Origin: a virus
Taxonomy: Duplodnaviria > Heunggongvirae > Uroviricota > Caudoviricetes
IMG/VR virus record: IMGVR_UViG_648276650_000002
Coordinates: 1-23,198 of that record
DNA length: 23,198 nt
Direction: 5' to 3' (one strand)
Shown here in pieces: positions 11,660 through 14,600 of the stretch. Every line of letters begins with the position of its first letter. The first letter of the stretch is position 1. The position numbers were made by a program.

Positions 11660-14600
11660 GTTTAAGCTTTTCGGTCTGCGATGATGGGTTCCCCGGAGTG
11701 ACTGGAAAGCGACCTGGTTTTGAATGGGCGCTGCTTTTTGCAAAATTGCTGTGTGAAAATACTGACCTTTGGGTTCAGCGCTCATCCAAAAGCATCACGT
11801 GAATTCACCAACGCTCATGTACTCTCCAGGAAACAATAAGTGATTCTGAAAAGTTCCGGTTAGATATTGCCCCGGTCACCGGATGATTTTATCTTTTGGT
11901 TCGTGGTGAATCCCCCTATGCGGCGGGGCGTCCAGTCAAACTTTTTTGTCCAGGTTTGTTTGCGCGGAACTAGTCGGCTGGGGCTGTTCCACCGGGAGGC
12001 ACCCGGCGCCACCTCCTTGACGGTATTGTTATTTTTCATGCCTGTTCGTCCGAGCAGGCTTTTTTTGCCCGCATTATCTTCATTGAAAACTGGCAACTCA
12101 GAGAATCATCCAAATTAAAAAAGCAGCAACGAGAGCGATTACTAATACATTCTTCGCTTTTTCTCTTCTGCTGGCCTTCACAAAAGGATTCACTATCCGG
12201 CAGTGGCTACACACAAGTGATTCTGGGTTAATTAACTTTCCGCAGTAGGGGCAGGGCTTGATAATCATTGGTACTAATTAAGTTGTGAGAACGTAGTCTC
12301 ATTTAACCACATTTATCGAGTTGTTTTACTAATGGTCTAGTTATTTCAGACATATTCATCAATTTCAGGCTCACGGGAATCATCCGCTACGTGCTTTGTT
12401 GATAAATCCAGCCCGTGAAGCCTGACCCTTTTCAAACACACACACAGCACCATCCGGAAAATCGGAGGTGAGGCCTATGAAAATGCCATACAAACAAGAT
12501 TTCATCGCTGCGCTACTTGCCGCCAAGGAGCAGGGTATTGGTGCAATGCTGGCTTTTATCATGGCGTATCTGCGTGGTCGCTATAACGGCGGCGCGGTAA
12601 CAAAAACGCTAATTGATGCGCTGATGTGCGCGATGATTGCCTGGTTCGTTCGTGACCTTCTGGACTTTATCGGCCTGAGCAGCAACCTCGCCTACATAGC
12701 CAGCGTCTTTATTGGATACATCGGCACCGATTCGATCGGCAATCTTATTAAAAAACTTGCAGCAAAAAAGGCGGGAGTTGACGATGCAAACCAGTCCTGA
12801 CGGAATTGCTCTGATAAAAAAATTTGAAGGTTGTCGGCTGACTGCTTACCCCGACCCCGGAACGGGAGATGCGCCGTGGACCATCGGCTATGGCTGGACC
12901 CATCCGGTTGACGGAAAGCCAGTAAAGCGCGGTATGACTATCGACCAGCAAACCGCTGACAGGCTTCTGAAAACAGGGCTTGTTGGTTATGAGAATGACG
13001 TGCTGAAAGTTGTCAGGGTGAAGCTGACACAAGGCCAGTTCGACGCACTGGTGTCGTTCGCTTACAACGTTGGGTCGCGTGCTCTTTCCACATCTACACT
13101 GCTGAAAAAGCTGAATGCTGGCGATATAAAAGGCGCGGCAGATGAATTTCTGCGCTGGAATAAATCAGGCGGAAAGGTGATGCCGGGGCTCACGAATCGC
13201 CGCAAGGCAGAGCGAGCTCTGTTCCTGTCATGATTAGCGCACTGGTTAAGCGTTACTGGCTGCAGTTGCTGGTGCTGGCGTTAATCGGCGCACTGGCTTT
13301 CTTCGTGAACCACTACCGCGACAACGCCATCACTTACAGAGACCAGCGCGATAAAGCCACAAAGAACCTCCGCCTGGCTAATGCCACCATCAAAGATATG
13401 CAGACCCGCCAGCGTGATGTCGCTGCACTGGATGCCAAATACACGAAGGAATTGTCCGATGCGAAAAAGACCATTAACGATTTGCGTCGTGATGTCGATT
13501 CTGGCGCTAAACGGCTGCGCATCGCCGCAACCTGCCCTGGAGTGCCAAAAGCCACCTCCTCCACCGGCGTGGATGATGCAGGAGTCCCCGAACTTACTCC
13601 AGACGCTCGACGGAATTATTTCGATCACCGGGACGGAATCGCAACCGCTGACAAAATGATTCGCGGCATGCAGGACTACATCAAAGAGCAGTGTCTTAAG
13701 TGATTCGTCACCCAAATAACAGAGCCTGACTTCGGTCGGGCTTTTTTATTCCCAGAAGAAGCAGGAGAAGAAGCATGTTAACAGTAAAAGTAATGTCGCC
13801 AGGTGGCGGTGAAGAGATTCATTGCGGGTTGAGTGTAGGGTTCAATCCGGGGCAGCAGAGCATCGCGGTATCGGGAATGGACAAAAATGTATTCCTGAAA
13901 CCTGGCGAGGTCGCCTACGTGATGAACCAGAACGGGAAGACGGTATCTCGTTACGAGCATAATGACCGCCAGTAGCCATTCCAAAGCTCACCTGCTGGTG
14001 GGCTTGATAATGGATATCCCCCTGAGCGGATAAATCAAAAATAACCCCTGCAACGGATAATGACGGAGCAACAGATGGCAAAAGCCAAATGGCACAGACT
14101 TCCGGCATTCACCATTCCGCCAGGTGACGCAGCCAGAATTGTTGATTGGCTGATCGCGGCATTACAGCAGGCATTCACTGAGTGCCTGTGATAATGCAAC
14201 AGCCCGTACAAAACGGGCTTGGATTTATCTCTTTGTTGCGTTCATGGTCACATGGTAAACGAATTGGCTAAATTGGTTATCCCAGCGCCCATTATGATTA
14301 GCTGCAACTAATTGCATTAACGCCTGCATTAACTTGCTGAACAGCAAGATTAACTTAAGTCTGTTTTTTGAACTGTCACTATCTAAGGAAACTTCTTCGG
14401 TTAATTGATTCTCGGCGTTAAAAATACCCAGTTTTGATTCTTCCATGCTGGGTTCCGTTGGATGCTGTTTAAAGTATTCAGTCAGAGTATCCGTCAGGCT
14501 CTGGATCCTTGAATCAGCAATGCTTTGTATTGATGGATTGTGTGCAAGGTCATTACGCATTGAGTTGATGGTTTTAAGTGATTTCATAAGTTCCGTGGGG

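Follow-up and report, generated by a model that had tools for sequence, protein, structure and literature searches.

A small RNA gene of the STnc100 family and a truncated tRNA-Gly trailer between the Q and holin genes of a lambdoid prophage

STnc100 (Rfam family RF02076) is a catalogued family of bacterial small RNAs (sRNAs) whose members are found in lambdoid prophages. In strain EDL933, 11 copies of STnc100 are present and all of them are transcribed, one having been confirmed by Northern blot (PMC5331693). The copy located just 3' of stx2B overlaps the Hfq-bound sRNA EcOnc27/sRNA103 (PMC4104026, PMC7873438, PMC12711010), and variants of the homologue found 3' of stx2 show a statistical link to the outcome of hemolytic uremic syndrome (PMC12711010). 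In Salmonella LT2, chromatin immunoprecipitation with exonuclease trimming (ChIP-exo) is reported to show RpoD binding for expressed sRNAs with assigned sigma factors, and the STnc100 promoter regions are among those shown (PMC10794520). For PasD, Hfq-dependent stability has been described together with the partners detected when interacting RNAs are ligated and sequenced (RIL-seq) (PMC8550237), and a 2026 preprint considers PasD1 and PasD2 of enteropathogenic Escherichia coli (EPEC) to be homologous to STnc100. According to this literature, the characterised homologues EcOnc27/sRNA103 and PasD1/D2 are Hfq-associated RNAs seen in lysogens. The locus analysed here lies in a stretch of 23,198 nucleotides, hereafter the window, which comprises positions 1 to 23,198 of the virus record IMGVR_UViG_648276650_000002 and corresponds to a lambdoid prophage. 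The segment under study (11660-12067) is non-coding and is located in the cargo ("moron") slot between the antiterminator gene Q and the holin gene.

An earlier note on this DNA had described a non-coding segment of about 400 bp ending in a strong terminator, which was confirmed at positions 11660-12067, and had proposed a covariance search against Rfam. This search, carried out with cmscan over positions 10800-12800, revealed an STnc100 match at 11878-12070 (+) with 71.7 bits (gathering score 47, E-value 7.7e-15) that spans the full length of the model (positions 1-206 of 206), and the match was reproduced on the whole window at the gathering threshold. The 3' part of the segment, about 165 nt (11903-12067), is an STnc100-family sRNA gene, already catalogued as a family and situated in its usual place in lambdoid prophages. 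The complete sRNA unit (11867-12067) is made up of a predicted sigma-70 promoter, a multi-helix 5' domain and a linker followed by a terminator. An RNA of about 165 nt is predicted by homology, the family median being 161 nt. Among the possibilities offered in the earlier note, a structured small RNA holds for these 165 nt, given the STnc100 match, the covariation and the predicted promoter of its own, although the RNA belongs to a catalogued family that had gone unrecognised. The interpretation preferred here, with a probability of roughly 0.7, is that two non-coding units make up the segment, the trailer of a tRNA-Gly gene (11660-11800) and the STnc100 gene (11867-12067), that the sRNA is Hfq-dependent and trans-acting, and that its terminator insulates the genes located downstream.

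The order Q/pR' (pR' being the late promoter), STnc100 and lysis genes, in the sense of late transcription, was found in the window and in seven annotated relatives. STnc100 lies between Q and the holin gene, on the strand of the late genes, in Fels-1 (three matches with 138, 59 and 83 bits) and HK639, and likewise in E. coli RM9088, NCTC9040 and KL53 and in the Klebsiella phage ST16-OXA48phi5.1. In RM9088, the genes stx1A and stx1B are placed between Q and the STnc100 copy, which starts about 110 nt 3' of stx1B and is 100% identical to the window from position 11904 through the holin start, in agreement with the earlier statement that this is where Stx phages carry their toxin genes. The cargo found in the slot of KL53 is an HNH endonuclease. 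When the phage collection was searched with the sRNA by blastn, only Klebsiella phages with about 73% identity were recovered; a sequence search alone misses the family, and a covariance model is therefore needed.

The distribution of the family was also analysed in viral contigs by searching for the two blocks with the strongest conservation, GGTGAATCCCCC and CCGGGAGGCACCCGG, spaced by 55-85 nt. This two-block pattern was present at no fewer than 120 loci (at least), many of them with two or three copies, and in 84 species-representative genomes, nearly all of Enterobacterales, with tandem arrays of up to three copies and with genera that include Escherichia, Salmonella, Pantoea, Erwinia, Rahnella, Kosakonia, Klebsiella and Citrobacter. 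Arrays of this kind, in which two or three copies follow one another at distances of about 100-270 nt, were observed at loci L002 (Fels-1, 1773-3528), L259, L260, L306 and L315; linker and terminator differ in each copy of these arrays, one of which is located on a Pantoea plasmid. The window allele itself is rare, with about 9 carriers among 5,426 complete E. coli genomes, and no link between this allele and the O157 copies was found by blastn. A search of the conserved sequence blocks in the text of papers gave a PCR (polymerase chain reaction) primer as the sole match.

The structure of the RNA was analysed with RNAalifold on an alignment of 64 non-redundant copies of the family. The consensus fold comprises, in this order, a closing helix, an invariant CCCCC/GGGG hairpin, a second hairpin variable in length and sequence, a covarying helix, a CCGGG/CCCGG hairpin, the linker and the terminator. 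The conserved blocks GGUGAAUCCCCC (11905-16) and CACCGGGAGGCACCCGG (11990-12006) are both present in the window, whose own minimum free energy fold shows the same helices as the consensus. Pairing is kept through changes on both sides at 14 of the 26 consensus pairs. The outermost pair of the closing helix is GC in 30 sequences and AU in 24, and a further pair of this helix is UA in 54, AU in 4 and CG in 2; in the fourth helix, one pair appears as GC (18), AU (10), UG (10), CG (8) or UA (3). The terminator stems also covary across the family. The invariant blocks were fixed by the search pattern and are for this reason uninformative on covariation.

The palindrome CCGGTCACCGG mentioned in the earlier note is present at 11872-11882, within the spacer of the predicted sigma-70 promoter of the sRNA. 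Across the family, the 60 nt located 5' of the core are represented by 85-86 distinct sequences, many of them mutually unrelated, and nearly all of these upstream regions place the -35 and -10 hexamers so that the start would fall 1-5 nt before TGGTGAATCCCCC. A fixed sigma-70 rule applied at that offset was passed by 37 of 86 distinct upstream sequences, compared with 3-6 at control offsets shifted by 20-50 nt and a mean of 3.8 (maximum 11) in shuffled sequences. The promoter is kept at the fixed offset also before copies that are not preceded by a tRNA gene. The 5' end of PasD1 (173 nt) has been reported from RNA-seq coverage and is consistent with the size of the Northern band (PMC8550237 Table S6); it corresponds to the G of GCAUGGUGAAUCC, the base equivalent to the predicted start in the window, and sits 7-8 nt 3' of a TTGACT-17-TAAAAA promoter.

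The linker that follows the 5' domain opens with CUCCUU, and positions 12010-12018 (CACCUCCUU) are complementary to Shine-Dalgarno sites. The linkers of the family have a median length of 26 nt and contain 12.6% G, and the predicted seed of PasD1/D2 (UGUGAG, obtained from RIL-seq targets) falls in the equivalent linker. A pairing of the window linker with the ribosome-binding site of the holin gene was considered and rejected, as the 7-nt match CACCUCC/GGAGGUG is no better than with any strong Shine-Dalgarno site. The terminator at 12040-12067, which the earlier note regarded as very stable, has a folding free energy (dG) of -13.5 kcal/mol (z = -4.6), and none of 200 shuffled sequences folds as well. 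A U-rich stretch followed by a GC-rich hairpin and a U7 tail is the usual layout for Hfq binding. No other terminator-like site was found on the + strand from the tRNA cluster to the holin start (11659-12040 and 12067 to the holin), so that transcripts from both the tRNA and the sRNA promoters should end at 12060-66.

On this basis, a mode of action can be proposed. In a lysogen, the host sigma-70 RNA polymerase would start at about 11902-03 and stop at 12060-66, yielding an RNA of about 165 nt, and polymerase reading through from the tRNA promoter would be halted by this sRNA terminator as well. Hfq would be bound by the U-rich linker together with the terminator hairpin and the U7 tail, and the sRNA may then act in trans through pairing of its G-poor linker, CUCCUU first, with mRNAs, as modelled on the presumed action of PasD1/D2 and EcOnc27/sRNA103. 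In cis, the terminator would bar tRNA and sRNA transcription from the holin gene and the other S-R-Rz genes during lysogeny, and after induction the Q-modified polymerase coming from pR' (about 10186-10221) would pass through it; both the insulation and the read-through are suggested by the known behaviour of lambdoid late operons.

Several observations weigh against this interpretation. Expression, start site, Hfq binding and targets are attributed to the window allele by analogy with its homologues, and the literature on the characterised homologues contains no validated direct target. Some of the EDL933 copies show high ribosome footprints (PMC5331693). The predicted promoter of the window scores 8 out of 12, it is absent from the list produced by a stricter scan and its spacer holds the palindrome. 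The single-sequence fold is unexceptional, with z = -1.45 for the whole RNA and -0.84 for the 5' domain, and the support for the structure consequently rests on the comparison of the family. Furthermore, conservation within the RNA is highest in the structured 5' domain and not in the region proposed for pairing, which is unusual for an Hfq sRNA and is not accounted for by the proposed mode of action.

The 5' half of the segment is read as a truncated, structured 3' trailer accompanying the tRNA-Gly gene of the phage; this gene has its 3' boundary at position 11659. Positions 11660-11803 show 96% identity to HK639 and 76-77% identity to several E. coli phages including 689R5, each time directly after a tRNA-Gly gene, and part of this half is 88% identical to a stretch of Fels-1. 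A 39-nt core pattern was found in at least 120 viral contigs, and it lies 86-87 nt after the T-arm of tRNA-Gly in 100 of 126 occurrences (85-88 nt in 103 of 126); the earlier description of the segment as a possible remnant of a tRNA operon is fair for this half only. Only about 25 occurrences of the trailer core are followed by STnc100 within the next 350 nt. In the hairpin at 11666-11710, the alignment of the window with 689R5 was read as showing changes on both sides of a pair (C-G to U-A and U-A to C-G). The long stem of the core (11716-11800) has a z value of -2.9, with 93.9% of cells paired and four pairs that change on both sides; these changes come essentially from one diverged lineage, and so the support they provide is modest. 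In most relatives the trailer unit extends over about 190 nt up to a terminator of its own; the copy in the window is truncated at about 11800 and has lost the usual 3' half together with this terminator. The homology to HK639, 689R5 and Fels-1 ends at about 11800, and positions 11801-11866 are common only to the close relatives L001, L005, L017, L020 and L034. Neither the 5' half as present in the window nor its full-length HK639 counterpart matched an Rfam family, the only similarities being sub-threshold and driven by the terminator. This trailer element could be an RNA that originates from the 3' trailer of a tRNA and has not been described before. A full-length copy of the element is present at L003 (3001-3220), and in L034 (1850-1990) an internal deletion beside the short repeat GATGATG has left the 5' half of tRNA-Gly joined to the trailer.

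With regard to base composition, the segment had been described as GC-rich, and this is correct in relation to its flanks (39-42%); nevertheless, the segment as a whole (50.0%) is close to the window mean (49.9%), and only positions 11903-12067 reach 56%. The features of the locus are listed in Table 1.

Table 1. Coordinates of the features described in and around the segment, as positions of the window
Feature	Position	Strand	Details
Antiterminator gene Q	9330-10166	+	PF03589 / PHROG 127
Candidate late promoter pR' and terminator tR'	10186-10279	+	Directly after Q
ORF (open reading frame) of 316 aa (amino acids)	10275-11225	-	PHROG 7003, function unknown; converges on Q
Candidate promoter of the tRNA cluster	TTGCAA (11313-18), TATCTT (11336-41)	+	Spacer of 17 nt
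tRNA cluster	11351-11659	+	tRNA-Ile2/Met(CAT), decayed tRNA-like sequence, tRNA-Thr(UGU), tRNA-Gly(UCC)
ORF of 67 aa	11599-11802		PHROG 30175 match; starts inside tRNA-Gly
Proximal tRNA-Gly trailer	11660-11715	+	Hairpin GCUUUUCGGUC...GACUGGAAAGC at about 11666-11710
Conserved stem element of tRNA-Gly trailer	11716-11800	+	Long stem UUUUG.AUGGGCGCUG / CAGCGCUCAU.CAAAA
Junction	11801-11866		Lineage-specific; from truncated trailer to sRNA promoter
ORF of 78 aa	11860-12096	-	Overlaps the 83-aa ORF
ORF of 83 aa	11867-12118	+	Overlaps the 78-aa ORF
Predicted sigma-70 promoter of the sRNA	TTGCCC (11867-72), TATCTT (11890-95)	+	Spacer of 17 nt; predicted start about 11902-11903
STnc100 5' domain	11903-12012	+	RF02076 match, RNAalifold, single-sequence fold
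Closing helix	GUGGUG (11903-08) / CGCCAC (12007-12)	+	RNAalifold
Hairpin CCCCC..GGGG	11911-28	+	Followed by the variable hairpin
Covarying (fourth) helix/hairpin	about 11965-89	+	RNAalifold
Hairpin CCGGGAGGCACCCGG	11992-12006	+	Invariant CCGGG/CCCGG
Single-stranded, U-rich, G-poor linker CUCCUUGACGGUAUUGUUAUUUUUCAU	12013-12039	+	Unpaired in predicted folds
Intrinsic terminator	12040-12067	+	8-bp stem (12040-12059) and seven T (U7 tail)
ORF of 56 aa	12098-12268	-	CxxC...CxxC motifs, hydrophobic tail; zinc-ribbon matches below Pfam cut-offs
Lambda S-type holin	12468-12800 (alternative start 12477)	+	PF05106

A bolder proposal, considered possible but unlikely, is that the STnc100 5' domain does not only provide an Hfq sRNA with a scaffold but serves as a ligand that a conserved factor of the host or of the phage recognises, with a role centred on the phage and with the variable linker as an exchangeable targeting cassette, and that the tRNA-Gly trailer (11660-11800) represents a second, undescribed family of structured RNAs. 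The idea of a ligand is drawn from the two blocks, which are letter-for-letter identical in the 84 species-representative genomes while promoter, internal hairpin, linker and terminator are swapped freely. If this were true, the 5' domain could, for instance, control the fate of late transcripts or the timing of lysis.

An exclusive role in cis is considered unlikely; in this reading the segment would consist of the 3' trailer of the tRNA operon and a terminator that shields the lysis genes, the released RNA being a by-product devoid of function in trans. It is true that tRNA transcripts should cross the whole segment, as no terminator is present from tRNA-Gly to position 12040, that the terminator at 12040-12067 is the sole barrier before the holin gene and that no member of STnc100 has a validated direct target. 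However, a bare terminator needs neither a domain of 110 nt kept by covariation nor two blocks identical in so many species, the fixed-offset promoter is also kept before copies that follow no tRNA, and the RNAs of homologues build up as discrete species, depend on Hfq and have RIL-seq partners.

When genomes were compared, homology was found to break at position 11635 and, in more cases, precisely at 11903/4, with which the conserved core begins. In 189 distinct copies, 88 types of the promoter segment, 72 of the interior and 97 of the 3' segment were distinguished; they reassort, with 11, 2 and 12 four-gamete quartets. The RNA body of the window was found with three promoter types, and the promoter type of the window with three bodies. 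The conserved blocks thus behave also as crossover points, which explains the presence of different cargo before the same RNA. It could be argued from the breaks at 11903/4 and from the reassortment of the segments that the element is mainly a boundary at the DNA level, in which invariant blocks persist as crossover points for the exchange of cargo and promoters between lambdoid phages. As the principal explanation this is improbable, because recombination accounts for the mosaicism but not for the compensatory changes in the helices, the fixed geometry of the promoter or the accumulation of RNA in homologues. The idea of a DNA boundary is compatible with the sRNA gene described above rather than a replacement for it.

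The earlier note had also suggested that the segment could be the scar of a lost cargo gene. The slot does hold cargo elsewhere (stx1AB in RM9088 and the HNH endonuclease in KL53, with the 316-aa reverse ORF as a further occupant), and three ORFs of 67-83 aa are open in the segment, that of 67 aa with a match to PHROG 30175. Nevertheless, a decayed remnant of a protein-coding gene is very improbable. The 78-aa and 83-aa ORFs, which overlap on opposite strands and had already been regarded as non-coding, matched no family when all ORFs of the segment and its surroundings were scanned against Pfam, PHROG and PADLOC, and they overlap the RNA with its covarying helices. The 67-aa ORF has its start within tRNA-Gly, and in the diverged homologues of 689R5 and Fels-1 stop codons break it; it was rejected as a gene, since gene calls placed across the tRNA trailer account for its PHROG 30175 match. 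The substitutions observed keep the RNA stems paired, no ORF is conserved and nothing aligns as decayed coding sequence, so that the suggestion of a scar is unsupported. The statement that no credible ORF exists up to the holin gene stands for the 78-aa and 83-aa ORFs, but the 56-aa ORF on the opposite strand makes it not fully safe. This ORF is open in a relative with 94% identity, with 10 differences distributed as 2, 3 and 5 over the three codon positions; it lacks an obvious Shine-Dalgarno site, is unannotated in RefSeq and converges on the sRNA terminator.

It is hardly credible that the sRNA is the leader of pR', like lambda 6S or StxS, with 11867-95 as the Q-loading promoter and 12040-67 as tR', since, although its length of about 165 nt resembles the 194 nt of lambda 6S RNA, its promoter looks constitutive, its terminator is strong, it lies upstream of S and the spacer palindrome is placed where lambda has the Q-binding element, the sRNA element starts 1.7 kb after Q, a separate candidate promoter-terminator pair conserved in Fels-1 directly follows Q (10186-10279), a Klebsiella phage has a lambda-like pR' and terminator plus a separate STnc100 copy, two or three copies are present in Fels-1 and in many contigs, and Stx phages have STnc100 on the 3' side of the toxin genes but pR' and StxS on the 5' side. 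The pR' candidate of the window (10186-10221) contains the overlapping sigma-70-like hexamers TTGATT/TATGCT and TTGTCC/TCTAAT, and the tR' candidate (10256-10279) consists of a hairpin (10256-73) and a T-run; Salmonella phage Fels-1 also has the block TGTATGCTTCTAATCATGCRGAGTWACGCCTG after its Q gene. In the Klebsiella phage, the lambda-like pR' with AACGATGGG and the terminator adjoin Q, and STnc100 is found 250 nt further on. The tR' hairpin of the window abuts the stop codon of the converging 316-aa ORF and may terminate transcription in both directions.

The nearest complete genome is that of E. coli FAM21845, with 99.7% identity over 11300-12480 and the same gene order. In RefSeq, the interval from tRNA-Gly to the holin gene is blank in FAM21845, and the region is blank in every matching genome. 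The 316-aa ORF, with about 39% GC, is located inside the late leader and has no Pfam or PADLOC match; it looks like a cargo gene. Within the tRNA cluster, positions 11430-11503 (+) were reported by ARAGORN as "tRNA-???" with an abnormal anticodon loop and were called neither by Rfam nor by RefSeq. At the homologous position phage 689R5 has a tRNA of 44 bits, and the sequence of the window is probably a decaying tRNA gene. The holin gene is followed by the lysozyme and Rz genes (S-R-Rz lysis genes). About 105 nt located 5' of the holin start (12362-12467) are kept at 72-88% identity in many otherwise different phage contigs and appear, from this conservation, to be a conserved holin leader. Beyond the lysis genes, a 204-aa ORF (14228-14839, -) showed only faint similarities of the HEPN/CARF type in PADLOC (E-values 0.004-0.008).

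For annotation purposes, the region can be labelled as an STnc100-family sRNA gene and a tRNA trailer. The main element is a catalogued sRNA family in its usual place, and its novelty is therefore low. The same sRNA allele forms the downstream bookend of cargo that differs between prophages: in the window this is a tRNA cluster, in RM9088 stx1AB and in KL53 an HNH endonuclease. The very strong conservation of a family that has no validated target or mechanism poses a modest question.

When the locus is compared with the 3' external transcribed spacer (3'ETS) sRNAs of tRNA operons, such as 3'ETS-leuZ, the 5' half is similar in being a conserved, structured trailer directly after a tRNA, and a position and co-transcription with tRNA-Gly as in those sRNAs are plausible; it differs in that the window trailer has no sequence relationship to them and no Rfam family, and in that it is truncated. 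The resemblance to lambda 6S and StxS consists of a small RNA with a constitutive-looking promoter within the late operon and a terminator that the Q-modified polymerase must pass, whereas the window sRNA does not adjoin Q and belongs to a family that is often multicopy and is located 3' of the cargo in Stx phages. The convergent sRNA dyads with the anti-sRNAs AsxR and AgvB (Tree et al. 2014) occupy the same slot, and their sense member is of the STnc100/EcOnc27/EcOnc06 type. No match to AsxR (RF02703) or AgvB (RF02702) was found with E-values up to 10 over 10800-12800, a search with the PasA probe sequence showed no PasA-like sequence, and no terminator-like site is present on the minus strand at 12068-12467. 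A convergent dyad was rejected given the lack of AsxR, AgvB or PasA matches, and in place of an anti-sRNA the opposite strand of the window has the possible 56-aa zinc-ribbon ORF.

The closest parallels are found within the family itself. PasD1 and PasD2 of EPEC E2348/69 (EcOnc13 in enterohemorrhagic E. coli, EHEC) share with the window sRNA a similar size (172-173 nt), the architecture, a G-poor linker, which in PasD holds the predicted seed, and the place between Q and the holin gene; their 5' end is at the base equivalent to the predicted start in the window, and a sigma-70 promoter lies just upstream. PasD1 differs in that the STnc100 model gives it only 37.7 bits, less than the gathering score, and its 5' hairpin, linker and seed sequences are unlike those of the window. 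The agreement with STnc100/EcOnc27/sRNA103 extends to the full-model score, the 5' blocks, the helices, the terminator and the slot between pR' with its cargo and the lysis genes. The window allele, in turn, has its own internal hairpin, linker and terminator, and while EcOnc27/sRNA103 follows a toxin gene, the sRNA of the window follows a tRNA cluster.

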